From Euryarchaeota archaeon UBA561 (lineage in GTDB: Archaea > Thermoplasmatota > Poseidoniia > Poseidoniales > Poseidoniaceae), in NCBI GenBank assembly GCA_002502295.1, contig DANX01000014.1, forward strand, positions 1 through 47,485: DNA of 47,485 bases, read 5' to 3'. Shown one piece after another: positions 2 to 35,335 of this stretch (the stretch's first letter is position 1; the number at the start of each line of letters is the position of its first letter). The notes below the pieces were generated by a model. The model was given only the letters and a program-made list of their open reading frames with translations. It ran no database searches and was not told the DNA's origin. A program made the position numbers and the translations under genes.

Positions 2-1951
2 CCCACCCTCGATGATGCGGTGGATTTTATTCGGCTTGAAACGGTTCAAGAACCCGGCCTGGGTGCGCCAAAGCAACCCACATCGGTGTTGGTAAAACGG
101 GATGAACACTCCTCAATGGCTTCGATGTTGTCAGGGGTCCAACGTGCGTTTAACCGCATGGACCCGGACATTGTGCTGACCGCCGGGGGAGATCAACGGT
201 GGTTTCCTTGGTTGGTTGAGCAAACCAGAGTTCATGGACGAACCTTGACTCTTGGAAGAACATCAACGCCTCTGCAGCGATCAACGAATCAACGCACGAT
301 TCACTCGTATGGACAAACCCGTCATCGACACGGAGCGTTCTTTTTGGAAGGTCGACTTCACCTTGATGTAAAGAACAGTTTCATCGTAAACGAGGGTGGG
401 CTTGCCGGGTTGTTTGAGCTCGCACAACATTCTCGGCAGTCTGCTCAAATCATTTCCCGTCTCTCTCCCGGTTCGGTCATCAGCGCCATCCAGATGCGCG
501 TCGCCATGGATGACGGCGTCCTTGTTCCATGGAAAAAAAACCGTCCTGAGGACACGAAGTCAGCCCTTGATCTCCTCCATGCAGACCGTGGTGGATTGTA
601 TTTAGACAGCAGAACCGGCGTCCATGCATCCGTCATTGAACTTGATTTTGCGAGTCTATTTCCAAGCATCATCGCAACCAGAAACATCTCTCCTGAAACG
701 TTGAATTGCTCGTGTTGCCAATCGCCTTCATCAAATCATGCCGGTGCGATTGTACCTCTGCATCCCGAAGAAGCCGTCCAAGAATTTCGTGAGCGGAGGG
801 TGCGTTCGGAATTTGGCCATGGCCTCTTTCCAATCGTTCACAAAAAATCCCTTACTGTGCCTGGATTGAACATGCATACTTGCGGCCGGATGCATGGATT
901 TCTAGGCCGTGTGGTTGCTCCGCTGATCGAGCGTCGCCGAATCCTGAAGCAGTTGCGAAAACAAAAAGGTGATGCCTACGATTTGCGGCAAAATGCACTG
1001 AAATGGTTGCTAGTGACATGTTTTGGGTACACCGGTTATCGAAATGCCCGGTTTGGACGTATCGAAGCCCATGAAGCGATCTGTGCCTGGTCTCGAGATC
1101 TTCTTCTGACCACGATTGAAGCCGCCCAGGACGATGGGTGGGACGTACTCCATGCCATCGTTGATTGTGTTTGGCTCTCTGACATTCGTGGGCGTTCAAA
1201 GCAACAGCAGCGCTTGGATGCTGAAGCATTTGCCCAGCGCCTTTCGTCCCGTGTTGGTATTCCCCTTGAATTTGAAGCGCATTACGATTTCATTGCTTTT
1301 CTACCAAGCCGAATGCACGGTTCTGGTTCACTGACGAAGTATTGGGCGTACGACGGTGAATCATTCAAGGTACGAGGTATTGAATTGAGGCAACATTCAA
1401 CGCCGCAGTGGGTTCGAACTCTCCAACAACATGGATTGGAATTGCTCGCTGAGGGGGAGCGTTCCAATGGTCTTCCATCTCAGCGTACACAGCGGTTGGT
1501 GTGGCGACATTTCCGGGCGGAAATCCGCCGATTGGCTAACGGCCTTGTTCCGTTGGAGGATCTTGTCATCACGCGCCGAACAAGTCGGACATGGCAGGAT
1601 TATCGCGTGAAGAATTTGACCTATGCTGCTCTCCTGCGAGCCCATGAACGCGGCTATGAGGTCCCACCCGGCGGTAAAGTGCGGTACGCTGTGTTGAACC
1701 GTTCATCTGAGCAGTTGTTGGAACGGGTGGTCTTGGCCGAGGAAGTGGACCAGTATGCTGGGCCCGGCACGGGTTGCGTGAGTCACTATGGTGAACTGGC
1801 TGAACGCGCCATCTGGGCGCTTCTCGCTCCTTTCGGATGGACTTCTGACCAGTTGCGCAACGGTGGGGCCCAACCGAACCTTCTGTCGTTCATGGTTCGC
1901 GATGTTGGAGCGGTAGGGCATCAACAGGAACAGGGACCTTTGGACGATTGA
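2..1951 (+). CDS. Family B DNA polymerase, 5'-truncated by the window edge; divergent, with degenerate exonuclease motifs
   Basis: The reading frame is open from nt 2, so the listed GTG at 20 is not the real start. PolB motif A is 'IELDFASLFPSIIATRNISPETL', the motif B region is 'KWLLVTCFGYTGYRNARFG' and the motif C region is 'VLHAIVDCVWL'. The Exo II region 'RMDPDIVLTAGGDQRWFPWL' aligns by eye to the Pfu-type '[20 protein letters not shown]'. Confidence 0.85.
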   Translation, partial: PTLDDAVDFIRLETVQEPGLGAPKQPTSVLVKRDEHSSMASMLSGVQRAFNRMDPDIVLTAGGDQRWFPWLVEQTRVHGRTLTLGRTSTPLQRSTNQRTIHSYGQTRHRHGAFFLEGRLHLDVKNSFIVNEGGLAGLFELAQHSRQSAQIISRLSPGSVISAIQMRVAMDDGVLVPWKKNRPEDTKSALDLLHADRGGLYLDSRTGVHASVIELDFASLFPSIIATRNISPETLNCSCCQSPSSNHAGAIVPLHPEEAVQEFRERRVRSEFGHGLFPIVHKKSLTVPGLNMHTCGRMHGFLGRVVAPLIERRRILKQLRKQKGDAYDLRQNALKWLLVTCFGYTGYRNARFGRIEAHEAICAWSRDLLLTTIEAAQDDGWDVLHAIVDCVWLSDIRGRSKQQQRLDAEAFAQRLSSRVGIPLEFEAHYDFIAFLPSRMHGSGSLTKYWAYDGESFKVRGIELRQHSTPQWVRTLQQHGLELLAEGERSNGLPSQRTQRLVWRHFRAEIRRLANGLVPLEDLVITRRTSRTWQDYRVKNLTYAALLRAHERGYEVPPGGKVRYAVLNRSSEQLLERVVLAEEVDQYAGPGTGCVSHYGELAERAIWALLAPFGWTSDQLRNGGAQPNLLSFMVRDVGAVGHQQEQGPLDD

Positions 1952-2711
1952 CCTGCGGTGAAGGCACATGAAAACGTGTCTGTAAATCGGTATTGAAGGG
2001 TAGCCACTGGCCTGCTGTTCCCGTTTGAAGATGATGCAAGTGAAGTGACCGTCGTCGCCGCCGTCCTTGCCACATCCCTTCGAGATGGTTTTCTGCGTGG
2101 CGTTGGACGTACTGAACATGGCGAGTATCCGTGAAGGGATCCTCTGCCCTTCCTGTGATGGCGATCACCGCAGCTTGTTTTCGATGCGCAAGTTCACGCA
2201 AGATGTGAACATGGCGCCGTAGTAGGGTGCGCGACTCCAATGACGATATGGCGTCGTCGTTGTGCATGGCCAGCAATCCATCGACAACGACCATGGGTGA
2301 ACGCGTGATGGCGAGTTCATCCGATAAACGTTCAAGTTGACGGTCAAGCTGATGCAGCGTGAAGCCTCGGCTGAGGTACAGACGAGCAAGACAGGCCTCA
2401 ACATCCGCTTCTAAAAATTCGAGAAGAGGGATGAACCGTGCAGGATCAATTCGGCAGGCCCCGTCAATCCAATGCACAACTTCTCCACGAGCAAGCGCAT
2501 AGGCTACCCAGTGCTCGCTAATGTCTCGCATGGTTTTTCCTGCAGGTCCAGGGCCGCTCAAATGGTAAATTTGTCCTTGAAACGGTTGGATGAGGGCAGG
2601 GTCGATGCCTCGGTGTTGTTGCGTGAGGGCGAAGATTTCCAAAGATTCTGGCGGGTCGGTTTCCATGTGAATCATTGAAGTCCGATTTTGGGGGTCGTCT
2701 ATCCTTGTCAT
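1890..2711 (-). CDS. RecA-fold P-loop ATPase (RadA/KaiC/ImuA-like); function unknown
   Basis: Walker A is 'HLSGPGPAGKT' and the Walker B-like strand is 'SPMVVVDGLLAMH', with RecA-like spacing. The C-terminal tail is Arg-rich ('GRRRRRS'). The start is ambiguous (ATG at 2711, 2675 or 2666). The 3' end overlaps the polB 3' end by 62 nt (convergent). Confidence 0.55.
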   Translation of the reverse strand: MTRIDDPQNRTSMIHMETDPPESLEIFALTQQHRGIDPALIQPFQGQIYHLSGPGPAGKTMRDISEHWVAYALARGEVVHWIDGACRIDPARFIPLLEFLEADVEACLARLYLSRGFTLHQLDRQLERLSDELAITRSPMVVVDGLLAMHNDDAISSLESRTLLRRHVHILRELAHRKQAAVIAITGRAEDPFTDTRHVQYVQRHAENHLEGMWQGRRRRRSLHLHHLQTGTAGQWLPFNTDLQTRFHVPSPQVNRPKVPVPVDALPLQHREP

Positions 2712-2775
2712 GACCCCTCAAGTTGAACTGAACACACACATCAAGTTCAAACACCATTGGCGGTGTTGAAGGTGC

Positions 2776-3906
2776 GTGGTCGATGAGGTTAGCAGCGTTG
2801 AGGCCACCGGCCCTCGTATTCTGATCCACTGCGACTTGGATGCGTTCTTTGCTGCGGTTGAAACCATCCATCATGGGTTTGATGAATCCATCCCCCTCAT
2901 CATCGGGTCCGATCCGAAACAAGGCCGTGGGCGTGGCATTGTATCCACCTGCAATTATGCAGCCCGTCAGTTCGGTATCCGTTCAGCCATGCCCGTTTCC
3001 GAGGCATGGAGGCGTTGTCCTGCCTCCCCTTTTGGACCCGGAGTCTACATCCGGGGAACGCGTGGCCTTTACAGTCGAGCCAGTCGAAAGGTGATGGATT
3101 GCCTTCGTGCGCCTGCCGTGTTGTTTGAGAAGGCCAGCATTGACGAAGCTTACCTTGACGTAACGGAAACGGTTGACGGGGATTGGGATGCTGCTCTGGC
3201 TTTGGCTGGTCAACTCCAACAGGCGATCAGAGAAGCGGTCAATCTCACCGCATCCTTTGGCATCGGACCTACACGGATCGTGGCGAAGATGTCGAGCGAA
3301 ATCAACAAGCCCAACGGCATCTTCAGAGTCATGCCCGATGAGGTTTCCCTCTTCTTTCATGGGCGGTCACTGCGCGATATTCCCGGCATCGGTCCAAAGC
3401 GAGCCACGCAGTTGGCGGAGTGGGGTTATACCACGGCCGATGAGCTCTATGAATTGGGTGAACTTTCTCTTTCACGGCTCACAGGGGAGCGGTTTGCAGA
3501 ATGGTTCATGCGGGTGGTCGACGGGGAAAGCAGTGCCGTCGTCAGCCCTCTGAGAAGCCGTAAGTCCGTCGGAAAAGAGCACACCTTTGAGCAGGACCGT
3601 GACAACCACGCTGAAGTGCTAGAACGGCTTGAACAACTGGTCCACTTGGTGATGGAGCGAGCTAAACATCTGGGCGTTTCGGGTCGGCTTGCCGAGGTAA
3701 AGATCAGATACACAGGATTTGAAACACACACCTCCGGTCGCAGCATACCGGTTGCGATGGACGATGAATCCGTGTTTAAGCGGCTTGCTCAGGTTTTGTT
3801 CGCAACAAACATTCAGCCCGATAGTCGGGTGCGACTCATTGGCTTTCGACTCGGTCAGTTGGAGATGCCGCCATCTCGTCAAACGACGTTGTTTGAGGAA
3901 GAGTGA
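2776..3906 (+). CDS. dinB: Y-family DNA polymerase IV (DinB/Dpo4)
   Basis: 'ILIHCDLDAFFAAVE' carries the catalytic Asp pair and the steric-gate aromatic. 'ASIDEAYLDVT' is the catalytic DE motif. 'LTASFGIGPTRIVAKMSSEINKPNG' and 'IPGIGPKRATQL' (HhH) are also present. GTG start, 13 aa upstream of the conserved core. Confidence 0.9.
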   Translation: MVDEVSSVEATGPRILIHCDLDAFFAAVETIHHGFDESIPLIIGSDPKQGRGRGIVSTCNYAARQFGIRSAMPVSEAWRRCPASPFGPGVYIRGTRGLYSRASRKVMDCLRAPAVLFEKASIDEAYLDVTETVDGDWDAALALAGQLQQAIREAVNLTASFGIGPTRIVAKMSSEINKPNGIFRVMPDEVSLFFHGRSLRDIPGIGPKRATQLAEWGYTTADELYELGELSLSRLTGERFAEWFMRVVDGESSAVVSPLRSRKSVGKEHTFEQDRDNHAEVLERLEQLVHLVMERAKHLGVSGRLAEVKIRYTGFETHTSGRSIPVAMDDESVFKRLAQVLFATNIQPDSRVRLIGFRLGQLEMPPSRQTTLFEEE

Positions 3907-16786: not shown

Positions 16787-16901
16787 AAGAAAGCGCACCT
16801 ACCTCGCTCTTTTGGGACCTCACATCGTGCTCATCTTTGGTCAAGGTTCATAACCGAACCAATGCCTCGGAGAATTAGCACAACAGTGCTGGGTGTCACA
16901 G

Positions 16902-19900
16902 ATGAGTCTCAATCACAACCAGATGGCGTATGTAGCAATCGTTTCTACCCTCATTTTTGGATCGCTTTTTGTGGGTATCTCTGGGTTTTTCCAAACAAGT
17001 GAGGAAATCGGCGGGTATGAAAGCGCTGTTGAGGAGGACATCCGTGGTGAAACCGCCCTCATCGAGGCGGGTCTTGATACCGATGGCGATGGTCTTTCGG
17101 ACAAGCTGGAAGAAACTCAGTACGGCACGGATGTCAACGATCCTGATACGGACAACGATGGCATGAGTGACGGTTGGGAAGTTCAACATGGACTGAATCC
17201 ACTCGATAACGGTGAATCAGAAGACCTTGAAATAGACCCAACACAAAACGACGAATCAAGCGATGCGCAAGTTGAGAATGAAACTGAATCATGGCCAGAT
17301 CCCAACCAAGGACCGAGTGGAGACCCGGACCGAGACGGATTAACAAACCAAGCCGAACAAGAACTCGGCACAGACCCACAACGCGCCGACACGGACAACG
17401 ATGGACTCAACGACCGCTGGGAATCATTGTACACAACCAGTGTCCAGACACCCGGTGGCGAAGTGGTTTTGTTCAACCCGCTTGATGGCAACTGGGATTG
17501 TCTCTTGCTGGATGCTGCTATGCTCGATGCTCTGCAGGACCGCTTTGACGGTGAAGACGGCATGGCAGACTGGGACGATTTGGCTTCCAATGACCGGCAC
17601 TCGTGCGACATGGTTCTTGATACGGACGACGATGGTTTGGCGAATTTTGAAGAAGAATCGTTCGGTACAAACCCAACATCTCGAGATTCTGACATGGACT
17701 TGATTGATGACATCGTTGAAGTGGCCAACGGAACATTCGGCCTGTTCACGGGCATGGGTGAAAACTGCAATGAACCGCTCCTCCAATCCGTCGTTCGCAC
17801 TGGACCGTTCCACGGCGTGGAACGCAGCTGGTTCATGATGGACATGGACGGCGATGGTCTGCTCAACGGTCCCTCAGATTGGGACACCGATGGCGACGGA
17901 ATGCCTGATGGGTTCGAATACTGCTATTCAGACAGCACCATGGCTCCAAACGCAGCCTATGTGCTGAATCCTGCTAACGCTTCGGACGGCTATGGCGACT
18001 GGGACGAAGATGGAATGAATAACCTAGAGGAATACCAAGTCGCTCAAATTTTTGGTGAAGGCAACTTTACCTCACCCTGGTTGGAAGACACCGACCAAGA
18101 CGAAATGCCAGACCAGTGGGAAGCAGTCAATGGGCTCCATCCTCGCTCAGCGTTGAACCGAAACGAAGACCCTGACATGGACGGATACGATCTTGACGCA
18201 GACGGCCACATCATGTTCAGCGAACTCGAAAACACGGCCATCGTCAACAGTGTTGATGTCTCACTGGGAGATCAAGTGTCAGAAAATCAACAAGTTGCTT
18301 CCGCTCGCATCACCCTCGCAGGTGGCAATCAGCAGGTTGTAGCTTTGCGTTCTCCAGTGGACGGTTACGTTTACGAAATGAACGTCGTTGTTGGGCAAAG
18401 CATTGAATCTCGATTGTTCAGTTGGATGAACATCGTTGAGGAGGAAGAACGCTTTACCAACGTAATGGAGTACAAAGCCAACGACCGTGACCAAGACGGT
18501 ATTCTTGACGGACGAAGCACCGACCCACTCAACGCCGATACCGATGCGGATGGACTCATTGACGGGATTGAAGTGATGGGTTGGGAAATTCTTGTCGTTA
18601 ACCGTGGCGTGCAACCGACTTGGGTGACGTCCGACCCGGGATTGTACGACACCGATGCGGACGGTCTCTCGGATTATGCTGAATTTTCGGCAACATGCAA
18701 CCTCGGCGGTTCAAACGCCTCCAACCCGGACACGGATTCGGATGGACTGACCGATCTTGAGGAAGCGGGTGACAATTTCATGTGGGAGGGTGAATCATAC
18801 TCCACCAGCCCGTGCATGTTTGACACCGACAACGACGGTCTCGAAGACGGTGAAGAGGTGGTTGCAGGCGCTGACAATTTCCTCACGCACGCCAACAATT
18901 CGGACACGGATGACGATGGACTGATCGACGGCCAAGAAGTGCTGTTTGTACCTCGTCCCTTCCAGAACCCGACCAACCCATTGCTTAACGACACCGATGG
19001 TGATGGTATGCTCGATGGATGGGAAATGCAAGTAAAGTCCGCAGAAGACAACACAAACTCTCACAGCCTTTGGGTCGCCACATCTACTTGGGAACGCCCG
19101 GGTTGCGAGTCCACCCAAACCAGTTCGTGCACAATGCAGCCTGGTGGCTATGTTTGGCAGAATTGGCTCGGTGGTTTTGCGCTGGAACCTAAATTCCAAG
19201 TGAGTGAAATGAACCTTACAGGATTCCAGATGCCCAGTAGCGACCTTTGCGACGGGTGCAATGGACGTTGGGCCCTTGACCCATCACTGAGTTCGTTGAA
19301 AGACGACACCTTTGACATTGACAACGATACGCTCGCAAACGGCATGGAAGCCCCTGATCGATGGGATACCAACCCTGTCGACGATGACACCGATGGCGAC
19401 ATGCTGCCCGATGGGTGGGAAGTCTACTACTCCCAACTTGCTTTCGAGACAGGACTGGCCGACAACGAAACCGTCGGCGTTTATGGCGCTCGTGGCGTGA
19501 TGGACCCGTCCATGCCGGACAGCGATTTGGACGGCATTGACGATGGGTTTGAAGACCCAGACAACGATGGTTTGAATCGAACTGGGTTGGTAAAGCGGTA
19601 TTGTCCTGGGTACAACGACACGACCAACTCGGAGTGCAATATTGACCCAGATACACCTGACGGTCAACGATTCTATGACAATCTACAGAACTACACGAAC
19701 TTTGAGGAGATGCAAAACGGGACCAACCCCATCACCAACGACTCGGATGGCGATGATTGGAACGATGGACCGGAGGTTTACTACCAAGACCACGATGATG
19801 ACGGCATGGCGACCGGCTGGGAATACCATTTCCAGTTCGATCCGTTTGACGGCGCCGACCGAATGGTTGACACCGACGGCGACGGCCACGTCAATTTCTG

Positions 19901-19982
19901 CGAATACAAGTGGGACACGAACCCTCGTAACCCTGTTTCCTATCCAGGTCAGGGTGAACTGTGCGACCCGTTTAGCGATTGA
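16902..19982 (+). CDS. N-terminally anchored, Asp-rich surface protein built from thrombospondin type-3-like Ca-binding repeats
   Basis: The N-terminal TM is 'YVAIVSTLIFGSLFVGISGFF'. Dozens of 'DxDxDGxxDxxE' units follow (for example 'DTDGDGLSDKLEE', 'DTDNDGMSDGWE', 'DTDADGLIDGIE'). I prefer the ATG at 16902 to the GTG at 16893. Confidence 0.8.
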   Translation: MSLNHNQMAYVAIVSTLIFGSLFVGISGFFQTSEEIGGYESAVEEDIRGETALIEAGLDTDGDGLSDKLEETQYGTDVNDPDTDNDGMSDGWEVQHGLNPLDNGESEDLEIDPTQNDESSDAQVENETESWPDPNQGPSGDPDRDGLTNQAEQELGTDPQRADTDNDGLNDRWESLYTTSVQTPGGEVVLFNPLDGNWDCLLLDAAMLDALQDRFDGEDGMADWDDLASNDRHSCDMVLDTDDDGLANFEEESFGTNPTSRDSDMDLIDDIVEVANGTFGLFTGMGENCNEPLLQSVVRTGPFHGVERSWFMMDMDGDGLLNGPSDWDTDGDGMPDGFEYCYSDSTMAPNAAYVLNPANASDGYGDWDEDGMNNLEEYQVAQIFGEGNFTSPWLEDTDQDEMPDQWEAVNGLHPRSALNRNEDPDMDGYDLDADGHIMFSELENTAIVNSVDVSLGDQVSENQQVASARITLAGGNQQVVALRSPVDGYVYEMNVVVGQSIESRLFSWMNIVEEEERFTNVMEYKANDRDQDGILDGRSTDPLNADTDADGLIDGIEVMGWEILVVNRGVQPTWVTSDPGLYDTDADGLSDYAEFSATCNLGGSNASNPDTDSDGLTDLEEAGDNFMWEGESYSTSPCMFDTDNDGLEDGEEVVAGADNFLTHANNSDTDDDGLIDGQEVLFVPRPFQNPTNPLLNDTDGDGMLDGWEMQVKSAEDNTNSHSLWVATSTWERPGCESTQTSSCTMQPGGYVWQNWLGGFALEPKFQVSEMNLTGFQMPSSDLCDGCNGRWALDPSLSSLKDDTFDIDNDTLANGMEAPDRWDTNPVDDDTDGDMLPDGWEVYYSQLAFETGLADNETVGVYGARGVMDPSMPDSDLDGIDDGFEDPDNDGLNRTGLVKRYCPGYNDTTNSECNIDPDTPDGQRFYDNLQNYTNFEEMQNGTNPITNDSDGDDWNDGPEVYYQDHDDDGMATGWEYHFQFDPFDGADRMVDTDGDGHVNFCEYKWDTNPRNPVSYPGQGELCDPFSD
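17076..19935 (+). repeat. Degenerate tandem coding repeats (TSP3-like DxDxDG units)
   Basis: The GAYACNGAYGGNGAYGG-type codon pattern recurs throughout the gene. This produces long spurious antisense ORFs. Confidence 0.7.
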
Positions 19983-20025
19983 TGAGAACAGGTGATGGAG
20001 GCTGCATCCAAACCACGGATGGCGA

Positions 20026-21564
20026 TTGACAAGCTCGTCTCTTGTCATCCTGATGTTGATGATGGCTACGGTGGTCACGGCCGAGTCATCCAGCGATGCA
20101 AGCGATTCGAACCTCCTCGAATTTGACCAAGCTGAAGGACTTCAAATGACGAACGTCATCAACCTCAGTGGCCATTCCAATTTCCCGTTGCGAAACGCCA
20201 GTTGGTCAATCGTCAACATTTCGAGTTCAACACCGACGACCTTGTTCTCAGGACCTTACCTCACGACCGTTCAGCCGGTTGCTGATGATGATTACCGCTG
20301 GGAACTTGTCGTTGAAGTCCTGGAGTTGGACTGCACCTGCTACGTCGAAATTAGCCTAAATCAAGACGATGAAGCCCAGCAATGGAGGCACCTTGTCTTC
20401 GTCGGAGAGGCCCATCACCGCCCTGTCTTCGCTGATGAACGGGCACTGATTGGAAAAAGCCTCGAAGAGGTTGCAGTCAACGAAGAACCTCAATTGGTGC
20501 GCATCGAAACCACTTTGTCGCTCTCATATGACGTTATACTTCCTCCAACCACGGCAAACGTTGCACAAGTGTCTGCAGAATTGTGCGAGGCCCCAAACGG
20601 CGTGTGCCGCGAAGTGCCTCGAATGGCTTCCATTCCGTTTGTCCAACAAGGCTCTGAAGTGGTGATGACGATCGATCCTGCAAGTCTTGACATGTCTCAG
20701 GGCGTATGGCATATGCAATTTACGGCGACGGATAACCTTCTACGAGAAACCGACTTCATTGAGTCCACGTTCCTCTTTGACAACGAGGCACCTCAAGTTG
20801 AGCTCGTTCTTGAATCCGTTGTGAAGGAACGGGAGCCAATCAACATTTATGCATCGGTGAAAGATGGATACCTTGGTGAATCCACATCGTACACATGGAC
20901 CATCATCAGTGAAAATTCACTACGCAGGGGGCCTTCCGCTGACGAACAAATCTCACCCGACCATCTAAGGCTCAATGTATCCGAACAGGGAACCTACACC
21001 ATCGAGGTGACCGTGAGGGACCGAGCAGGCTACATGACCCAGAAAACGTCGTCGTTCATCGTCATGAACCAACGCCCTACAGCACTCATGAGCGTTGATG
21101 GGTTGGTGTTGTCAAACGACGTTCGTCTCACCCTGACAGACGGCGAGGCTTGGGTTATCAGCGGCAACAATAGCCTTGATAACGAGCCTGTTGACTACCT
21201 TTGGGTGATCAACGACGACCGTTCATGGCGGGGGATTTCCGTCATTACACCAGAACAATTTGATCGGACGGGCTTGCACACCGTGGAACTGATTGTCTTT
21301 GATGACGATGGAGCGACACATGCTACGAAGATTGAGATTGAAATTCTGGCCTCGGAATCTGAACAAAACACCTCATTGCTTGGTTGGATTTTCCCCGCAT
21401 CGTTGGTGTTGGCCGTCATCGTGTTTGTGGGTTGGCGTTCAAGAACCAGCGCCAATCTGGAACTGCCAAAATGGAAGGTTTCCGCTCCTCAAGACGACAG
21501 GCCTGAACACGATAACTACATTGTAGCAGATGCAACGATTGAAGAAGACGAAGCGCGAGGGTGA
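20026..21564 (+). CDS. Secreted PKD/Ig-like repeat protein with a C-terminal TM anchor
   Basis: The signal-like N-terminus is 'SSLVILMLMMATVVTAES' (TTG start). PKD-like signatures include 'YTWTII...GTYTIEVTVRDRAGY' and 'YLWVINDD...GLHTVELIVFDDDGATH'. The C-terminal TM is 'LLGWIFPASLVLAVIVFVGW', followed by an acidic tail. Confidence 0.7.
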   Translation: MTSSSLVILMLMMATVVTAESSSDASDSNLLEFDQAEGLQMTNVINLSGHSNFPLRNASWSIVNISSSTPTTLFSGPYLTTVQPVADDDYRWELVVEVLELDCTCYVEISLNQDDEAQQWRHLVFVGEAHHRPVFADERALIGKSLEEVAVNEEPQLVRIETTLSLSYDVILPPTTANVAQVSAELCEAPNGVCREVPRMASIPFVQQGSEVVMTIDPASLDMSQGVWHMQFTATDNLLRETDFIESTFLFDNEAPQVELVLESVVKEREPINIYASVKDGYLGESTSYTWTIISENSLRRGPSADEQISPDHLRLNVSEQGTYTIEVTVRDRAGYMTQKTSSFIVMNQRPTALMSVDGLVLSNDVRLTLTDGEAWVISGNNSLDNEPVDYLWVINDDRSWRGISVITPEQFDRTGLHTVELIVFDDDGATHATKIEIEILASESEQNTSLLGWIFPASLVLAVIVFVGWRSRTSANLELPKWKVSAPQDDRPEHDNYIVADATIEEDEARG

Positions 21565-21567
21565 TTC

Positions 21568-22941
21568 ATGTTCGCTGAGGCCATGGCTCGTCTACCATCG
21601 CTCCCTCCGCCCACTTTGCTGGAGGAATTCCAGCAGCGCCAAGACCGTTTGACATCTCAATTTCGAAACGATGACGTGTTCGTGCTTGCATCTCCTCCAC
21701 ATGCCGTTCACTCCAACGATGTCCACTACCCATACCGAACATCCAGCGATTTGATGTATCTGACTGGATGGACGGAATCGGAGTCTGTCTTCGTCATTCG
21801 AAACAAAGATGGCCGTTGGGTCTCATCCCTCTTCGTTCAACCAAAAGACACACTAAAGGAAATTTGGGAGGGGCGCCGTCCGGGCGTTGAAGGAGCCCTT
21901 GCGTTGTTTGCTGTGGACGAAGCCTACGGCAATGATGAACTCGAGAGCCTTCTTTCCGGTTGGTTGAACGACGCCCAAAGGGTGTTTGTCCGTGGTGGTG
22001 TAGACCAAGGCATTGACCTGCTTGTTGAAGACGCAGTCCGGCGAAGAGATCGGGCTCGTCAACACTTTGGAAGCGGCCCCGTCGCCGTTGAAGACCCATC
22101 GCGTTTACTCGCTGAATTACGGTTGAGGAAGTCTGCTTCAGAAATAGAACAAATGACCTATGCGTGCAAAGTGGCCAGTGTCGCGCACGAATTGGCAATG
22201 CGACACAGCAGAGAAGGCGTGACTGAATACCAACTTCAATCGGTGATTGAAGGCTTCTTTTCCTACGCAGGGACTTCGGGATGGTCGTATCCATCCATCG
22301 TTGGGTGCGGTGAGAACGCAACGATTCTGCACTACAAAACCAACCAGGATGTCTGTGGAATGGGCGAAGTAATTCTCATTGATGCGGGTGCAGAATACCA
22401 CGGCTACGCCAGCGACATCACCCGGTCGTGGCCCATTTCAGGAAGGTTCACCGATGCTCAGCGGGAAATCTACCAACTCGTTTTGGATTCACAATTGGCC
22501 GCCATCGATGCCTGCCGTGTTGGTAATCTCTACACCGCTCCTCACGACGCTGCACGAACAGTTCTCGCAGAAGGTCTCATTCGCCTCGGTGTTATTTCAC
22601 AAACGCTGGATGAGGCCTTGGACATGGAAACTGGCGAATTAAAAAGCTGGTACATGCACAACACAAGCCACTGGATTGGCCTTGATGTCCACGATGTTGG
22701 TATCTACAAGCCGGGCGGTGAGCCGCGTGTGTTGGAACCAGGCATGTGCCTCACGGTTGAACCAGGCCTGTATTTCGGTGCATGGCGTCCCGACGTTGAT
22801 TGCCCAGAACGGTATGCGAACATTGGGATTCGAATTGAGGACGACGTTCTCATTACCTCCGACGGCCCGGTTGTAATGACAGAAGATTGCCCGAAAAGCA
22901 TTGAAGACATCGAGCGTATTGTTGGTCAACAACTCGACTGA
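21568..22941 (+). CDS. pepP: Xaa-Pro aminopeptidase (M24B, aminopeptidase P)
   Basis: The AMP_N signature is 'HSNDVHYPYRTSSDLMYLTGW'. The M24 metal ligands lie in 'ILIDAGAEYHGYASDITRSWP', 'HWIGLDVHD', 'LTVEPGLY' and 'IRIEDDVLIT'. Confidence 0.88.
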   Translation: MFAEAMARLPSLPPPTLLEEFQQRQDRLTSQFRNDDVFVLASPPHAVHSNDVHYPYRTSSDLMYLTGWTESESVFVIRNKDGRWVSSLFVQPKDTLKEIWEGRRPGVEGALALFAVDEAYGNDELESLLSGWLNDAQRVFVRGGVDQGIDLLVEDAVRRRDRARQHFGSGPVAVEDPSRLLAELRLRKSASEIEQMTYACKVASVAHELAMRHSREGVTEYQLQSVIEGFFSYAGTSGWSYPSIVGCGENATILHYKTNQDVCGMGEVILIDAGAEYHGYASDITRSWPISGRFTDAQREIYQLVLDSQLAAIDACRVGNLYTAPHDAARTVLAEGLIRLGVISQTLDEALDMETGELKSWYMHNTSHWIGLDVHDVGIYKPGGEPRVLEPGMCLTVEPGLYFGAWRPDVDCPERYANIGIRIEDDVLITSDGPVVMTEDCPKSIEDIERIVGQQLD

Positions 22942-22950
22942 GGTGATTGT

Positions 22951-24138
22951 TTGAACTGGGAAAGCATTCTACTGCGTCAATCTGGCTGGTCAAAGGCCCG
23001 CTCGAGTGAACTTCGCATGACTCCCGAGGAAGCCATCGTCATTTACAACGACGCTCCTCTGCATTCCCTCATGCGGGCCGCTCATCAACGGCGCTTGGCC
23101 ATGCACCCGAATGGAAAGGTCAGTTATCTTGTTGATCGAAACATCAACTACACAAATGTGTGCACCATCAACTGCCAATTTTGTTCCTTTTACCGCCCAC
23201 CGGGACACAAGGAAAATTACACTCAAACCTACGAAGAAATATCCGAGCGTATTCAGGAATTGGAAACGATCGGTGGTTCTCGTATTCTCATGCAGGGTGG
23301 CGTAAACCCGTCCTTGCCTTTCCAATGGTACACGGATTTGCTCAAGTTCCTGCGAGTCAACCATCCCTCCATTGACCTGGACTGCTTTAGTCCAATTGAA
23401 ATTGAAGGCCTTGCAGAAGTTTGTGAAATGAGTACACTTGAGGTCTTGCAGCATCTGAAAGCGGCCGGCATGCACGGTTTACCGGGCGGTGGGGCTGAGA
23501 TGTTGGTCGAGGAGGTTCGAAAAGATGTCTCGCCAAAGAAAGGAGCACCTGCGAATTGGCTACGGGTGATGGGTGAGGCTCAATCCCTTGGACTCACAAC
23601 AAGCGCCACCAACGTTATCGGTTTTGGCGAGGGTGCACGGGAGCGCGTTGAACACATGCGGAGAATCCGTGAGTTGCAGTCCTTTTCGCTCGAAAACCAC
23701 GGTCACGGCTTCACGTCATTCATTGCATGGCCGGTTCAACTCGAATCCAATACCTTTGGACGACGGAATCGCGGACAAAACAAGCACGTGCTTGGAGCAG
23801 GTTCTTCTGAATACCTCCGCCACGTTGCGGTCTCTCGCTTATTCCTTGACAACGTGGAAAATATCCAAGCCTCTTGGCCAACCATGGGTCTCAAAGTGGC
23901 CCAAATGGCCCTGCTAGCAGGGGCAAACGACGCGGGCTCGACCATGATGGAGGAGAACGTCGTTTCTGCATCGGGCACCAGCAAGCTCGACGCCACTGAG
24001 GTTGAACTTCAATCCGCAATTGTGCGCGCTGGTTTTTCACCGGTTCGAAGGGACAGCGACTACCAATACCTGCCTACCACCCTGCTTGTTCCTCGTGTGG
24101 CGGAACTTGCGGCACCGCCGCCCGTCATCACGTCGTAG
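22951..24138 (+). CDS. Radical SAM enzyme of the MqnC/MqnE/CofH family (futalosine-pathway menaquinone biosynthesis-like)
   Basis: 'VDRNINYTNVCTINCQFCSFYRPPG' carries the CxxxCxxC cluster in the family-typical context, and 'ILMQGGVNP' is also present. I cannot separate MqnC from MqnE by eye. The listed start is TTG; an alternative ATG lies at 23017. Confidence 0.75.
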   Translation: MNWESILLRQSGWSKARSSELRMTPEEAIVIYNDAPLHSLMRAAHQRRLAMHPNGKVSYLVDRNINYTNVCTINCQFCSFYRPPGHKENYTQTYEEISERIQELETIGGSRILMQGGVNPSLPFQWYTDLLKFLRVNHPSIDLDCFSPIEIEGLAEVCEMSTLEVLQHLKAAGMHGLPGGGAEMLVEEVRKDVSPKKGAPANWLRVMGEAQSLGLTTSATNVIGFGEGARERVEHMRRIRELQSFSLENHGHGFTSFIAWPVQLESNTFGRRNRGQNKHVLGAGSSEYLRHVAVSRLFLDNVENIQASWPTMGLKVAQMALLAGANDAGSTMMEENVVSASGTSKLDATEVELQSAIVRAGFSPVRRDSDYQYLPTTLLVPRVAELAAPPPVITS

Positions 24139-27100
24139 GGCCGTAGAACACAATCCAAACCACGGCACGAATGTTCCGTCCACCGTTGCCGATTCCATCT
24201 GAAGGCACGTATTCAGCACCGTTGTAGTAGCCTCTGTACACCATGTGGTTGGAGTTGTTCGTCGTGTTGTCAACCCAATCGGTAATGTCGTATGTCCACT
24301 GTTTCACATCCTGACCAGCGCACCATCCGGCTCGGCCAAAGGGCCATGATCCGAATTGATTGGCCACGACGCCATTGTTTACTTCGTTTTCACAACCCTC
24401 GTTGCTGTAGACGATGGGATGCCATTCGTAGGTTTGGTGCTCCCCAATGGTGTAGTAATGTTGGTGGTCACAAAATTCTGCACAATTGGCCGTGTCTTGG
24501 TTGAAACCGTGCCCTGTAATGGTCGCTACAATCCCTACGCTCGTGGCGTAGGATGGAACCGTGAAATTGAGCTGGCGTACATGGCGTGATTCGTTGTTGT
24601 AGGTGCCGTCAAATTGCCCACCACTGAACGCATAGGTGCCGTTGATGGCCCGAGTGCCGCTTCCCCAATTGCTGAACAAGAACGTCACCGTCAAATCGCC
24701 CTTGTTTGCGCCAGCATACTTGAACCGCCGCTCTTCACCGTCGTCAAGCATGAACAAATAGGGTGAGATGTCGGTGAGCCACATACCTTCGCGACCGTAA
24801 GTTGTAATCCAACGAATAGCCTCTGTGTTGCAAATGGAATCATTGGTGCGGTCGCAAATGTACATGTAGGCTAAGTAATCCCATTCGTGGCAACCTCCGT
24901 ATGACCCATCTGATTTTTGATATCGGTTCGTTCGCTCGAAACAGGCATGTTCGTGGTACACCTCCAAGGTGTCGTAGGAACTCAGATTATCAGGCAAGTC
25001 AAACGTTGCTTCAGCAAACGAAGAGTAGCCCCCTCCCCAACCGCCGGAGTGCCTTTGGAAATCCATGACGGAAATGGCGTGGACGGCCGGGTCGTGCTCC
25101 CGTATTTTTGTTGGGAATTCTGCGACCCACTGATTGGGTTCATAGGACAAATGGAAGGGGTCGTTGGATTGACTGGTCCATGCGTAAAGAGAACCGGTCT
25201 CACGTGAAAGTTGGAACCGATCAATGCCGATGAAGAAGGGACTCTTGAACGAGCTGATCATCGAACCAAGGCCACCTCCAAGGTTGCTGGCATCGACATC
25301 GATGTAGTGAATCCGAGAGTCCCAATGTGCTTCTTCCGAGGTCGTTAGACCTGCCATGACAGCGTTTCGCTGTTGGAGAACATCGTTGTGGTAGCTGCTG
25401 TCAAATGACCCATAGAAAAGATGGGTGTTTAGTGGAAGATTGCGAATAAACTTTCCAGGATTTTGTCCCCATGTCGCATCGTTGTTGTTGCCGTTGCTGT
25501 CGGTGTACTTGAACATGAAAAAGTAGACATCGTGGCCCGTCCAACGGTCTTTGAAATTGTAGGTTCCATTGAGCGTTGGAAAACTAAACTGTGGAACGGT
25601 TTGCATGGGGCCGTTGAGGCTGCTCGCATCGGTCCAATCAACGGGTTGTTGTACGACAGCACATCCCGTCAAATCAACGCTCCAACGGTCAGGAGATTGT
25701 GGACATTCATCGACGTTGGCAAACACTCCATCTCCATCGATGTCGGCACAACCAACGGCATTCACGACCAGTCCACTGGGTGTTCCTTCGCACTGGTCAA
25801 GCAAATCATTCACACCGTCTTCATCGGTGTCTCGTTCAACGGCTGCGCAGCCGAATTCGTTCACGTCACTGGCTTCGAGAGGAGTGCGTGGGCATTCGTC
25901 AAGGATAGCCCCGGTCCCGTTGACATCGTTCACACCGTCGTTGTCATCGTCTTCGTCTTCGGTTGCGTCCTCGCAACCGTCGTTGTCCCAATCGGTTGTG
26001 GTGTCTGAAATCCAGTTCGCAGCGCCTTTGGCACATGCATCGTTTTCGTCGGTGTGGCCATCGTTGTCATCGTTGTCATCTTCGTCCAAGTCAGAACAAC
26101 CGTCGTTGTCCCAGTCACTGTATCGGTTGGAATACCATCCTTTCCGACCGATCGGGCATAGATCATCGGTGTCCTCAACACCGTCGTTGTCATCGTCGTT
26201 GTCTTCGTCGGCATCGTGGCAGCCATCGTAATCGTAATCTGCAGACGGTGTGCTGACCCAACCATAGGAGCTTGGGCACAAGTCGTACGTGTCAATAATT
26301 CCATCGTTATCGTCGTCCTCGTCTTCATCGTTGTCTCTGCATCCATCTTGATCGCCGTCGGTCGCTTGCGTTGATTGCCAACCATCATCGGCACCGATGC
26401 CCGATGGACACCGATCGTTTGCGTCTTGTATGCCGTCACCGTCTTGGTCGTCACCTGCCCCCTCAATGACGACTTGTGTGGTTGCTGTGTCGCTTGATAG
26501 AGCATACGTTCCACACGTGGCTTGTGTTGTGATGGTATGGGATTGTGTAGCCTCGGTGAAATCAACGAGCACTTTCCAAGCCGATTCCGAATCCAGGCCC
26601 ACCGTGCCCTGAGTTCCGTCCGTGATGGTGTAGGTGATCGTGCATGAATCAGCGTTGAGGTGTTCAACAGAACCCTCAAACCAGACCACGTTGGGTTCCT
26701 CAAGCACCAGTCGGTTCGGTACAGAGATGATTGGAGCTGGTTCTACTGGTGCGAGAACCTCCAAGGGCAGCACAAGAGGAGACATTGCCGGGGTCAGGTC
26801 GGTCGACCCAGCGTTGATAATCGTGACTGAAACGATGTGCTCTCCTGTGATGGTCGGTATAAATTTCAGCTGATATCCAGCTTCATTTTCGGACCATGAA
26901 AGGTCAGATATGGGCGTGAAGTTGGGTTGGAGCACGGTAGGCTCAATCGTCCACTCACCCTCCCCCTCCTGCTGGATCCCGAGGGAAAAAATAGCTTCTT
27001 CACCCAGCGCAATCTCTGATGGTGAAACGATCCATGTCGTTTTCAATGAATACGTGGAAGCTTTGGGTTGTTCAACCTCTGGTGCAGGTTCAGTGGTGCC

Positions 27101-27163
27101 AAGACACCCTGCCAACATCATCAATGAAACGAGGAAGAGCGCAGAAAATTGCCGCACTTGCAT
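24128..27163 (-). CDS. Lipobox-anchored surface protein: Ig-like N-terminal region + TSP3 repeats + C-terminal PNGase F-like two-domain module
   Basis: I prefer the start 'MQVRQFSALFLVSLMMLAGC' (ATG at 27163). TSP3 units include 'DQDGDGIQDANDRCP' and 'DYDYDGCHDADED'. The C-terminus aligns by eye to Elizabethkingia PNGase F: 'GGCHEWDYLAYMYI' against 'TCDEWDRYANVYV', 'ATITGHG...NCAEFC' against 'TTISGWG...GCAEWC', and 'GRAGWCAGQDV' against 'DRAGWCPGMAV'. Confidence 0.8.
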   Translation of the reverse strand: MQVRQFSALFLVSLMMLAGCLGTTEPAPEVEQPKASTYSLKTTWIVSPSEIALGEEAIFSLGIQQEGEGEWTIEPTVLQPNFTPISDLSWSENEAGYQLKFIPTITGEHIVSVTIINAGSTDLTPAMSPLVLPLEVLAPVEPAPIISVPNRLVLEEPNVVWFEGSVEHLNADSCTITYTITDGTQGTVGLDSESAWKVLVDFTEATQSHTITTQATCGTYALSSDTATTQVVIEGAGDDQDGDGIQDANDRCPSGIGADDGWQSTQATDGDQDGCRDNDEDEDDDNDGIIDTYDLCPSSYGWVSTPSADYDYDGCHDADEDNDDDNDGVEDTDDLCPIGRKGWYSNRYSDWDNDGCSDLDEDDNDDNDGHTDENDACAKGAANWISDTTTDWDNDGCEDATEDEDDDNDGVNDVNGTGAILDECPRTPLEASDVNEFGCAAVERDTDEDGVNDLLDQCEGTPSGLVVNAVGCADIDGDGVFANVDECPQSPDRWSVDLTGCAVVQQPVDWTDASSLNGPMQTVPQFSFPTLNGTYNFKDRWTGHDVYFFMFKYTDSNGNNNDATWGQNPGKFIRNLPLNTHLFYGSFDSSYHNDVLQQRNAVMAGLTTSEEAHWDSRIHYIDVDASNLGGGLGSMISSFKSPFFIGIDRFQLSRETGSLYAWTSQSNDPFHLSYEPNQWVAEFPTKIREHDPAVHAISVMDFQRHSGGWGGGYSSFAEATFDLPDNLSSYDTLEVYHEHACFERTNRYQKSDGSYGGCHEWDYLAYMYICDRTNDSICNTEAIRWITTYGREGMWLTDISPYLFMLDDGEERRFKYAGANKGDLTVTFLFSNWGSGTRAINGTYAFSGGQFDGTYNNESRHVRQLNFTVPSYATSVGIVATITGHGFNQDTANCAEFCDHQHYYTIGEHQTYEWHPIVYSNEGCENEVNNGVVANQFGSWPFGRAGWCAGQDVKQWTYDITDWVDNTTNNSNHMVYRGYYNGAEYVPSDGIGNGGRNIRAVVWIVFYGPTT
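25690..26460 (-). repeat. Degenerate tandem coding repeats (TSP3-like, Cys-containing DxDxDGC units)
   Basis: 'D(W/Y)DxDGCxDxDEDDDDDNDG' units recur about 6-8 times. The matching codon periodicity yields long antisense ORFs (25463-26703). Confidence 0.7.
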
Positions 27164-27200
27164 GGATGCTGGTTCCCATGGCTGTCTTTGAATGTGTTGC

Positions 27201-28343
27201 TCACGACATATCAAGTTCACTTCGACCGTCATGAAGAGGTAGAAATTCCAGCGGTGTATATGTTCCTGAATGAGCGACCTTCAGTGGCTGGACCCAAAGC
27301 AGGGCTCCGCCACGTTTTCGGTCAATTCGAAGGATAATTTCCCAATGAATTCGCAAGAGTTCTGTATGAACTGAACCCGGCCATGTGGGTTCGGGTGGCT
27401 CCAGTTTCAAAGGCTCACCTTCCCTCCAACGTTCAGGTTTTCCTTGAACCATGATTCGCATCGGCCTGAGGTAAAGCCCTCCTTTGACCTCCTTGAGTTC
27501 CATAGGAGCGTCTTCCCCACCTGCGGTGCCGTCATCCAACCCCACCTCCCAGTGATGTGGAAGTTCGGTTGATAACCCGGGTGGTGGTTGGCGCTGTGGG
27601 TTCCTTTGGAGCGTTTCGAGCAGGGTTTCCCGAGACGGTGGTAGTACGCCGACACGAAGAATGGCATCGACATGGTTCCAAGCGGGTTCCCATTCTGGAA
27701 AATGCACGTTCAATTCAAGGGGGTTGTCGGCGGTGCTGGAATGAATAAAATCAATCGTTGGGGTTTTCAAATCCCGCTTGAGAAACTGGTTTTGCCTTCT
27801 CAGTTCCAACAGATTTGCTATCACTCGAATGAACAGGGGCGCAAAGATGAGGGGGACGACAAACACAGCCAAAGCTGGGTAATCCAACAGTCCCCAGCGG
27901 ACCGTTTCAAGCCCGTATACCGGCAAATTTAACCAAATCAAAACGGGTGAAATAAACAAGTAAAACAGGCACGTTAGGAGGACAATCACGACCCCATTGA
28001 TGAACTGGCGCAGGATGTTGTGCACCGGGTTTGGTATCAAGTACCATCCTTGTCGCTGTTTCTTCACTGCTTGAACATAACTGCCGGATTCGAGGCAATG
28101 GTCATTCATCTCAGAGACAAGTTCTTCATCGTCGTAAACAAAACTCCGTTCAATAAGCCAGCCACTGTCATGGCCCAAACGAAAGGAGGGTGGCTGACCC
28201 TGAACAGCTTGCTGGGCCGATTCCTCTGAATCGTATTGACCAATTTCATATCGTTTGACGGCGATAGGTAGGTTTTCTGGAGCCCACCTCGACGCTTCAA
28301 ACGGAGGATAGCGAATTCGATGCTGTTCATGAAGTGGCTTCAT
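27201..28343 (-). CDS. Hypothetical membrane protein (soluble N-terminal domain, 2-3 TM, soluble C-terminal domain)
   Basis: The hydrophobic core is 'INGVVIVLLTCLFYLFISPVLIWL ... YPALAVFVVPLIFAPLFIRVIANLL'. I recognised no motif. It is tightly packed between the GGR-family gene and the PNGase F-like gene on the same strand. Confidence 0.5.
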   Translation of the reverse strand: MKPLHEQHRIRYPPFEASRWAPENLPIAVKRYEIGQYDSEESAQQAVQGQPPSFRLGHDSGWLIERSFVYDDEELVSEMNDHCLESGSYVQAVKKQRQGWYLIPNPVHNILRQFINGVVIVLLTCLFYLFISPVLIWLNLPVYGLETVRWGLLDYPALAVFVVPLIFAPLFIRVIANLLELRRQNQFLKRDLKTPTIDFIHSSTADNPLELNVHFPEWEPAWNHVDAILRVGVLPPSRETLLETLQRNPQRQPPPGLSTELPHHWEVGLDDGTAGGEDAPMELKEVKGGLYLRPMRIMVQGKPERWREGEPLKLEPPEPTWPGSVHTELLRIHWEIILRIDRKRGGALLWVQPLKVAHSGTYTPLEFLPLHDGRSELDMS

Positions 28344-34840: not shown

Positions 34841-35335
34841 TCATATGTCAAACACAACATCTGCATACCAACCGGGCCCCTCGAATTCAGGAACATCCTC
34901 CCATTGGCTTGCCACCAGCTCTCCTTTGTTGACTTCAGCGACTACCAAATTGTGCGTGGTAACGGCTTTAATTTCAATTTCTCGCTCAACGAGTTCTGCG
35001 TCAACCCAACTTGCCTGGGCTACGACCATCCAACCATCATCATCGTGGACCACCTTCACCATCCCGTCGAGGTACCACTGTCCATGAACTTCAGCGCGGT
35101 AGAGCACTTCATCCAACCAGGCCAAGTAGAGAAAATGGACGTCGTTCGGATTGTGTTCTGACCGCACTCTCCACTCACCTGTGTGCCGTACATGTGTGTT
35201 GATGAGTTTGGCACTGGCTTCACTCATCAGGTAGGCTTGCACACCTAGAGCGGCTTCGGCAAACAACGATGGGAAATCCTTCGCAAATACCCGCATGCCA
35301 ATGTCAGCCGTTGTTGGCCACAACCAAGCACTCAT
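34841..35335 (-). CDS. Archease (RtcB tRNA-ligase activator/chaperone family)
   Basis: 'PTTADIGMRVFAKDFPSLFAEAALG' corresponds to the 'HTADIG.rayG....LF..AA' signature. 'IEIKAVTTHNLVV' corresponds to 'VKAVTYH', and the protein ends in 'VVFDI'. Confidence 0.85.
   Translation of the reverse strand: MSAWLWPTTADIGMRVFAKDFPSLFAEAALGVQAYLMSEASAKLINTHVRHTGEWRVRSEHNPNDVHFLYLAWLDEVLYRAEVHGQWYLDGMVKVVHDDDGWMVVAQASWVDAELVEREIEIKAVTTHNLVVAEVNKGELVASQWEDVPEFEGPGWYADVVFDI

Follow-up and report, generated by a model that had tools for sequence, protein, structure and literature searches.

The DNA analysed here, called the window throughout, is the 47,485-nucleotide (nt) stretch at positions 1 to 47,485 of contig DANX01000014.1 from Euryarchaeota archaeon UBA561 (assembly GCA_002502295.1; Poseidoniales, Poseidoniaceae), and our subject is the locus at its left end, where a B-family DNA polymerase, a RecA-like protein and the Y-family polymerase DinB are encoded next to one another. 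A first-pass annotation, made from the letters alone, had described this trio in the orientation -> <- -> as a candidate damage-tolerance module, and all three open reading frames were found in that arrangement. The features of the locus are listed in Table 1 under the names of an archaeal system, the PolB2 mutasome, that consists of the polymerase PolB2 (Dpo2), the RadA homologue iRadA and the small protein PPB2.

The frame of the polymerase remains open past the left edge of the window, so that the N-terminus and the upstream PPB2 gene fall outside it; in the source contig the full polymerase has 830 amino acids (aa) (P0079; L087). The RecA-like frame is open from 1890 to 2711 on the minus strand, which gives the 273 aa of the first-pass annotation, but the closer homologues are mostly 260-262 aa long and begin at Met13, and the gene is therefore most likely the shorter one of Table 1; the RecA fold claimed for this protein stood, as described below, and its length did not. 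The gene call recorded on the source contig (L087 8432-9073, equal to window 1890-2531) starts iRadA from an internal methionine, giving a 213-aa protein that drops the conserved N-terminal strand and the P-loop. The PolB2 and iRadA genes are convergent and their 3' ends overlap by 62 nt (window 1890-1951), which implies that there is no space for separate terminators and that the two transcripts overlap antisense. Overlaps of 49-77 nt are also present in L001, L002 and L005, and a 13-nt gap separates the two genes in L073.

In the window's own contig (L087), the gene that immediately precedes the polymerase, and overlaps its start codon, falls just left of the window and encodes PPB2, an 89-aa protein that starts MGRSVPSWRRR and has both Arg3 and Arg9. 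This agrees with PMC11791011, where PPB2 (arCOG07300) is described as helical and ~90 aa long, with a conserved 'MGRT' arm at its N-terminus and arginines at positions 3 and 9. A small gene annotated as DUF8156, a label taken from precomputed annotations, lies directly upstream of the polymerase in every related locus, and it lies between iRadA and PolB2 in the classical same-strand operons of a Thermoplasmatales genome and of another archaeon; a local Pfam scan of PPB2 gave no match. The first-pass annotation had counted DinB as the third component of the module, whereas the true third component is PPB2.

Table 1. Features of the locus in window coordinates
Feature	Position	Strand	Basis
PolB2 (Dpo2-type B-family polymerase), C-terminal 649 of 830 aa	2..1951	+	Pfam, NCBIfam and structure matches
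Exonuclease motif II remnant AGGDQRWFPWL	182..214	+	HMMER alignment to P. furiosus PolB; Asn and catalytic Asp replaced
Loop GVLVPWKKNRPEDTKSALDLLHADRGG ending in PolB2-specific D(K/R) motif	515..595	+	Alignment of 70 orthologues; iRadA-binding role from the cited part of PMC11791011
Polymerase motif A ELDFASLFPSII (ELDFASLFPS)	638..673	+	Catalytic Asp kept, 70/70
Polymerase motif B variant KWLLVTCFGYTGY	1001..1039	+	Lys kept, 70/70
Polymerase motif C HAIVDCVW	1151..1174	+	First Asp of DxD replaced by Ile, second Asp kept; PolB2 hallmark
C-terminal PCNA-interaction-like motif QPNLLSFM ([QKR]xxLxxF)	1871..1894	+	Orthologue alignment
iRadA, 261-aa Rad51/RadA ATPase-core homologue without N-terminal domain	1890..2675	-	Homologue alignment, profiles, AlphaFold2/Foldseek
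VHWIDGACRIDP in place of RadA 'IDTEGTF'	2442..2477	-	Catalytic Glu replaced in all homologues; most conserved family block
Walker A-like GPGPAGKT	2532..2555	-	Perfect in window copy; decaying across the family (alignment)
Divergent iRadA/DinB spacer, 100 bp, with promoters of both genes	2676..2775		Intergenic alignment
iRadA promoter element TTCAGTTCAAC, one base shorter than the tandem CACTTTCACTTTCA	2722..2732	-	Upstream-region alignment, pattern scan
Conserved DinB-proximal block CATCAAGTTCAAACACC	2739..2755	+	21-37 nt before GTG start; only in DinB-adjacent loci
DinB / Pol IV Y-family polymerase, 376 aa	2776..3906	+	NF002677, IMS/IMS_C/HhH, catalytic motifs; neighbour, not demonstrated component

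Linkage across Poseidoniales

One genome per GTDB species was scanned with the iRadA alignment, which gave 79 loci, and linkage was counted over those loci whose contig reaches far enough. All of the loci belong to Poseidoniales, save a few evidently mis-binned records. Among the contigs that carry a Poseidoniales locus, L025, L009 and P0103 are filed as 'Verrucomicrobiales bacterium', 'uncultured bacterium' and 'Woesearchaeota archaeon', which are probably errors of binning or labelling. PolB2 adjoins iRadA in 73/73 loci and PPB2 is in place in 70/70, with iRadA convergent with PPB2-PolB2 in every arrangement seen. The neighbourhood survey thus speaks in favour of the coupling between polymerase and RecA-like protein that the first-pass annotation had proposed.

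DinB did not show the same linkage. It adjoins iRadA in 57 of 74 loci, which amounts to 77% of species and includes both families of the order, and in the window the next gene after it is ValRS, on the minus strand. Seventeen loci, all of one clade, carry neither DinB nor ValRS; unrelated glycosyltransferase and membrane genes are found instead, and iRadA, PolB2 and PPB2 are intact. DinB is likewise missing from its place in the distant locus L001, where the neighbouring genes encode an AsnC regulator and cytochrome oxidase. Because DinB and ValRS are missing together from loci in which the trio is intact, the synteny breakpoint falls between iRadA and DinB. DinB is kept or lost with ValRS rather than with the mutasome, and its inclusion among the linked members of the module rested on proximity; as a core component of the mutasome it is ruled out by its loss along with ValRS and by its absence from L001.

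The polymerase and the RadA homologue

The polymerase gave E-values of 2.2e-21 against Pfam DNA_pol_B and of ~1e-31 against archaeal PolB proteins of known structure. Its best NCBIfam models, 717 and 665 positions long, are both short families named 'type B DNA-directed DNA polymerase', with E-values of 1e-114 (NF004418) and 2.5e-108, and the canonical archaeal PolB models of the same collection score far behind these two. It is the orthologue of EHR76801, which the portions of PMC11791011 used here class as PolB2. The proofreading motifs, which had been described as looking inactivated, are indeed lost, as the Asn and Asp of exonuclease motif II are replaced (Table 1), the ExoI region of the full-length protein reads MEVKFA and a search of the polymerase for the exonuclease domain of Pfam (PF03104) gave no match.

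The sequences VPWKKN, EDTK and ADRGG are invariant in 70/70 Poseidoniales PolB2 orthologues. A table in PMC11791011 has 'IPWKKN..ADRGG' likewise for the PolB2 of Thermoplasmata and Bathyarchaeota, together with 'IPWKKNMPENWKTAEELLIADRGG' and 'HGIVDSLWV' for the same two groups, and in the models presented in that source the PolB2 loop before the D(K/R) motif forms a beta-alpha motif that binds iRadA. Motif C reads (I/V)VD in 70/70 orthologues, as opposed to the YxDTDG of canonical enzymes; the S. islandicus PolB2 has IID at this position, and both IID and IVD are found in the table of PMC11791011. Lysine and tyrosine of the KxY region are also invariant (70/70). Taken together, the IVD of motif C, the ADRGG sequence, the lost exonuclease motifs and the matches to the short NCBIfam models place the polymerase in the PolB2/Dpo2 group. 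As the aspartate of motif A, the lysine of motif B and the second aspartate of motif C are invariant, it is an exonuclease-dead yet probably catalytically competent B-family polymerase, and the invariance of catalytic residues argues for a working enzyme, not a relic. The C-terminal tail of PolB2, [QKR]xxLxxF, looks like a PCNA-interaction motif, with leucine in 70/70 and phenylalanine or tyrosine in 70/70 orthologues and the form KKYTLFDFF in some clades. According to the part of PMC11791011 that treats such PCNA-interaction-like (PIP-like) motifs, they are commoner in iRadA than in PolB2.

The RecA-like protein gave weak matches to Rad51/RadB profiles (PF08423, 2.6e-4; TIGR02237, 4.6e-6), and its NCBIfam matches are RadB/RadA models, all below threshold. 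An AlphaFold2 model built with 29 homologues reached a pLDDT of 82.9 and a pTM of 0.76. When this model was compared with the PDB through Foldseek, the best matches were Dmc1, Rad51, Rad51 paralogues and RadA at E ~1e-11, and the highest target-normalised TM-scores, 0.68-0.72, went to isolated RadA ATPase domains. On the strength of these scores, the predicted structure confirms a Rad51/RadA ATPase core that lacks the N-terminal domain, and with it the RecA fold on which the first-pass annotation had made its reading of the middle gene depend.

That annotation had further taken the protein for an orphan RecA-fold ATPase, and here the family alignment led to a different result. The window protein is the orthologue of EHR76800, classed as iRadA in PMC11791011, and iRadA is defined as a homologue of RadA whose ATPase site is inactivated both in PMC4104785 and in the cited part of PMC11791011. 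In several family members the Walker A lysine is replaced by arginine or alanine, and the threonine by serine, glycine, glutamate or histidine, as in the variants GEGRAGAS of L067 and GYGHAGRS of L073. The segment that holds the catalytic glutamate in RadA, 'IDTEG', reads 'IDGA(C/H/T)R' in all members. The residues that are invariant in iRadA (V, H, W, G and R, within VHW.DGA.R and RGFT.HQ) are not catalytic ones. Judged from this alignment, the iRadA family is without a conserved hydrolytic site, and an orphan active ATPase was rejected at the family level, since neither the Walker A lysine and threonine nor the catalytic glutamate are conserved.

Promoter elements and the place of DinB

In every locus, the tandem element CACTTTCACTTTCA stands upstream of PPB2, immediately behind the stop codon of the gene that comes before. 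The distance from its start to the ATG is 62-66 nt for most loci (mode 64; overall 62-82), and the element is followed by GGGTC and by an AAGCAT-like box (AAGNAT); in the source contig it lies just left of the window, at L087 5682-5697. A 16-nt position weight matrix (PWM) was built from the PPB2 sites and 1.19 Mb were scanned with it on both strands. Of the 128 matches, 71 lie upstream of PPB2, 30 lie upstream of iRadA in the orientation of iRadA and 27 lie elsewhere, so that 101/128 fall at these two promoters. Measured in the same way, 35/77 iRadA upstream regions score above the 99th percentile of random windows, including those of 17/18 DinB-less loci.

In the clade of the window the iRadA element lies ~61-62 nt from the ATG. 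In the window itself, TTCAGTTCAAC is followed on the minus strand by GGGTC (2712-2716) and AAGGATAG (2699-2706), which is the architecture of the PPB2 promoter, and a pattern that allows the shorter form of the element was found in 63/77 iRadA upstream regions, against an expectation of 2%. As both units carry tandem A(C/T)TTTC, GGGTC and an AAGNAT box, these shared promoter sequences argue that PPB2-PolB2 and iRadA would be co-regulated despite lying on opposite strands.

No copy of the shared motif was found in the orientation of DinB, either with the PWM (0/59 DinB-side regions) or with the relaxed pattern (0/61), and the conserved block on the DinB side, CATCAAGTTCAAACACC, is a different sequence and probably the core promoter of DinB; sharing of the promoter motif by DinB was therefore rejected. 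This block (2739-2755) and the iRadA motif (2722-2732) stand a few bp apart and form an imperfect inverted repeat in which AGTTCAA occurs in both orientations.

In three PolB2 loci from outside Poseidoniales, namely L089 of Thermoplasmatales, L090, and L091 of Halobacteriales, no clear copy of the tandem motif was found, and the AT-rich spacers of these loci make single ANTTTC matches meaningless; a further locus, L088, breaks off where its contig ends. Upstream of the iRadA-like gene of L091, a PolB2 locus with a Cdc6-type neighbour, there is a palindrome, GATTTCCGGAAACCCGGAAATC (2830-2860), that might be an operator. At L089 5001-6399 (CP070712.1), PolB2 is called as two pieces of 316 aa and 115 aa after intact iRadA and PPB2; the gene may be a pseudogene or carry a frameshift, or the assembly may be in error.

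The DinB protein scores 262.3 bits against NCBIfam NF002677 (cut-off 256), has the IMS, IMS_C and HhH domains and retains both of its catalytic motifs, HCDLDAFFAAVE (DLDAFFAAVE) and SIDEAYLD, in keeping with the first-pass annotation. By these features DinB is an ordinary Pol IV, predicted to be active, in a ValRS-DinB synteny block of most, not all, Poseidoniales. Its C-terminus reads RQTTLFEEE in the window (3877-3903, +) and RQAKLLLEEE in L073. This tail is acidic and conserved, has QxxL(F/L) at its core and might be a degenerate clamp-binding motif. The presence of such neighbours is also recorded in print, as Supplementary Table S1 of PMC11791011 gives IMS (PF00817) among the polB2 neighbours in 46/95 operons of group 3b, to which its supplement assigns Poseidoniales, along with 2-Hacid_dh_C (45), tRNA-synt_1 (42) and Lactamase_B (32). 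The neighbour set of that table is the Poseidoniales synteny block found in the present loci. The adjacency of DinB is thus recorded in the table and undiscussed in the available portion of the main text, and it is lineage-specific.

DinB may cooperate with PolB2 as an inserter to its extender. In the strongest form of this idea, DinB is a genuine fourth partner that inserts opposite lesions before the mutasome extends, the back-to-back promoters of iRadA and DinB are under common control and the adjacency has been selected. The adjacency in 57/74 species-level loci persists over deep divergence, with iRadA identity down to ~37%, no more than a few bp separate the iRadA motif from the conserved DinB block within the inverted repeat just described, and switching between Sulfolobus Dpo4 and Dpo2 in the bypass of abasic sites is examined in the cited part of PMC8721586. 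Set against this are the departure of DinB with ValRS from 17 loci that keep the trio, its absence from L001 and the lack of the shared motif in DinB orientation. In addition, IMS neighbours are nearly absent from the other PolB2 operon groups in the supplement of PMC11791011 (4/1375 in group 1a and 6/187 in group 4), and in S. islandicus damage induces dpo2 but not the gene for the Y-family polymerase (PMC6061795). We consider a fourth partner rather unlikely on this balance.

A related and bolder reading takes the tandem element for an operator through which DNA damage or light stress would control a regulon in Marine Group II archaea, kin to the Orc1-2/ANTTTC system of Sulfolobales. In most Poseidoniales the element would also couple DinB as inserter to the PolB2 mutasome as extender; the coupling is suggested because the element abuts the DinB core promoter within the 100-bp spacer. 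In Sulfolobales, the damage-response element ANTTTC is bound by Orc1-2 (PMC6061795), and Raymann et al. described a Cdc6/Orc1-2 paralogue in uncultured marine group II. The tandem hexamers ACTTTCACTTTC are strongly conserved and fit ANTTTC, 62-66 nt before the ATG compared with -23 to -55 in Sulfolobus, a likeness that consists of a six-base pattern only. We put this regulon forward as a distinctly unlikely proposal, which, if true, would for the first time make the regulation of damage tolerance accessible in these archaea, which are abundant in the surface ocean and uncultured.

Candidates for further regulon members in the window did not hold. The only exact match to ANTTTCANTTTC in the window is AATTTCAATTTC (34970-34981, +), which falls within the coding sequence of archease and could be due to chance, as 25/100 shuffles also contain a match, and the best PWM matches are weak and intragenic. 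The other 41 kb of the window is ordinary housekeeping chromosome of even base composition, with genes for an MMPL transporter, an EVE protein, an aminotransferase, SHMT, topoisomerase I and DHODH as well as archease, tRNA-intron endonuclease, TatC, PntAB and MDH. These surroundings and the even composition rule out a mobile-element origin of the locus. From 16893 to 27232 there is a series of very large proteins, probably secreted or exposed on the surface, that includes one of 1029 aa with bacterial TSP3 repeats, one of 512 aa with PKD domains and one of 1034 aa with a PNGase F-like C-terminal domain; a Xaa-Pro aminopeptidase and a radical-SAM CofH/MqnC-like gene are found among them.

The PolB2 mutasome and other systems

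The first-pass annotation had taken the locus for an archaeal cassette not yet described. The association of PolB2, arCOG07300 and an inactivated RadA was reported in 2013/2014 by Makarova et al. (PMC4104785), who proposed a damage-response complex. In 2025, Timinskas, Timinskas and Venclovas (PMC11791011) gave PPB2 and iRadA their names and modelled a PolB2:iRadA:PPB2x3 heteropentamer, which the parts of their paper relied on here liken to Pol V and Pol zeta. The supplement of that paper lists the Poseidoniales operons as 'group 3b (PPB2-PolB2-iRadA)' and includes EHR76800-EHR76802 of the Marine Group II (MG-II) genome CM001443, a set that was modelled as PolB2, iRadA and three copies of PPB2 with an AlphaFold-Multimer ranking score of 0.866. 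The iRadA and PPB2 of our locus from CM001443.1 (L073) are letter-for-letter equal to the EHR76800 and EHR76802 rows of that supplement. The PolB2 mutasome is thus already known, Poseidoniales included. The broader reasoning of the annotation fared better, since its multi-component damage-tolerance system with an exonuclease-dead PolB and a RecA-like protein matches the published PolB2 system, and its analogies with Pol V, Pol zeta and Sulfolobus Dpo2 are the ones drawn in PMC11791011.

We therefore read the locus, with a probability of roughly 85%, as a PolB2 mutasome encoded in the chromosome of a marine archaeon of the Poseidoniales (Marine Group II), in arrangement group 3b. In the published models, one PolB2, one iRadA and a trimer of PPB2 would assemble into a heteropentamer in which the PolB2 loop ending in ADRGG would bind iRadA in the way that Rad51 subunits bind each other, and the MGR(S/T) arm of one PPB2 would insert near the active site. 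By analogy with Sulfolobus genetics, the complex would extend mismatched or lesion-containing primer termini after DNA damage, and the conserved C-terminal [QKR]xxLxxF of PolB2 suggests that it is probably tethered to PCNA.

Several points weigh against this assignment. The iRadA gene lies on the opposite strand, and the argument from a single operon that serves for most PolB2 systems is not applicable here. In the clade of the window the iRadA promoter motif is degenerate, one base shorter than the tandem and below the PWM threshold. The window copy of iRadA retains a perfect GxxxxGKT, which makes nucleotide binding possible for this protein, and the adjacency of DinB across both families exceeds what would be expected of a random neighbour. 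The Sulfolobus work and the published AlphaFold models are the source for the formation of the complex, for its activity and for its induction by damage.

According to a hypothesis put forward in 2014 by Makarova (PMC4104785), PolB2 and iRadA would be catalytically dead and would act as regulators of replication or of origin use, and the loss of the first motif C aspartate and of the exonuclease site fits with this, as does the decayed ATPase site of iRadA. The S. islandicus Dpo2 has the same IxD motif, however, and is an active extender polymerase that is required for targeted mutagenesis in the cited parts of PMC8764526 and PMC11791011. The invariance of the motif A aspartate, the motif B lysine, the second motif C aspartate and the lysine and tyrosine of the KxY region would also be unexpected in a dead enzyme, and orc1/cdc6 is a neighbour in 0/95 operons of group 3b in the supplement of PMC11791011. 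Dead regulators are accordingly a very unlikely explanation. That the polymerase is instead the ordinary housekeeping or replicative PolB of the lineage, with incidental neighbours, is scarcely credible: it is highly conserved and present in every Poseidoniales locus recovered, which would favour such a role, but it falls in the PolB2 group with all of the peculiarities of that group, has no proofreading site and invariably stands alongside PPB2 and iRadA, and in those euryarchaea that have been tested the essential replicase is PolD (PMC4065339).

With the system, its composition, the analogy with Pol V and Pol zeta and Poseidoniales representatives already in print, the value of the PolB2 mutasome described here is mainly confirmatory. 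In Poseidoniales, which are among the most abundant archaeal groups in sunlit ocean waters and constantly face UV damage, the mutasome proves to be universal and subject to strong purifying selection. Two additions can be made to the published picture, namely a promoter element common to the two oppositely oriented units, as a candidate operator with which genomes and metatranscriptomes can be searched, and a conserved PCNA-interaction-like tail on PolB2 itself in Poseidoniales. The adjacency of DinB is to be taken as a hint of cooperation between inserter and extender, and no further.

Among systems outside Archaea, E. coli Pol V (UmuD'2C-RecA) and ImuA-ImuB-DnaE2 share with the locus the combination of an error-prone polymerase, a RecA-family protein and a small accessory subunit, and the architectural parallel with Pol V is likewise drawn in the portions of PMC11791011 cited here. 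The catalytic subunit at the locus, however, is of the B-family and not of the Y- or C-family, the Y-family gene encodes an active stand-alone DinB in place of an inactive ImuB or UmuC, and no UmuD homologue is present at the locus. Membership in ImuA-ImuB-DnaE2 was rejected on these grounds, given a B-family polymerase and a catalytically intact Y-family protein that scores as Pol IV, and the PolB2 mutasome is analogous, not homologous, to both bacterial systems. Eukaryotic Pol zeta (Rev3-Rev7-Pol31-Pol32), acting with Rev1, is similar in that an exonuclease-deficient B-family extender works within a heteropentamer after a Y-family inserter, but its accessory subunits are unrelated and none of them belongs to the RecA family.

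Within Archaea, the polymerase belongs to the same group as Sulfolobus/Saccharolobus Dpo2 (PMC6061795 and the cited part of PMC8764526). Compared with the PolB2 mutasome as published, the Poseidoniales locus has some features of its own, none of them a difference in kind: iRadA is encoded on the opposite strand, convergent with PolB2 and overlapping it at the 3' ends, the clear PIP-like motif is on PolB2 rather than on iRadA, GKT is retained in the iRadA of the window, and DinB is a frequent neighbour whereas orc1/cdc6, SRAP and DUF72 are not found as neighbours. In all else the two agree, with the three components present and invariably linked, the IxD of motif C, the dead exonuclease and the conserved ADRGG with its preceding loop in PolB2, the N-terminal MGR(S/T) arm of PPB2 and an iRadA that has no N-terminal domain and, at the level of the family, no conserved ATPase residues.

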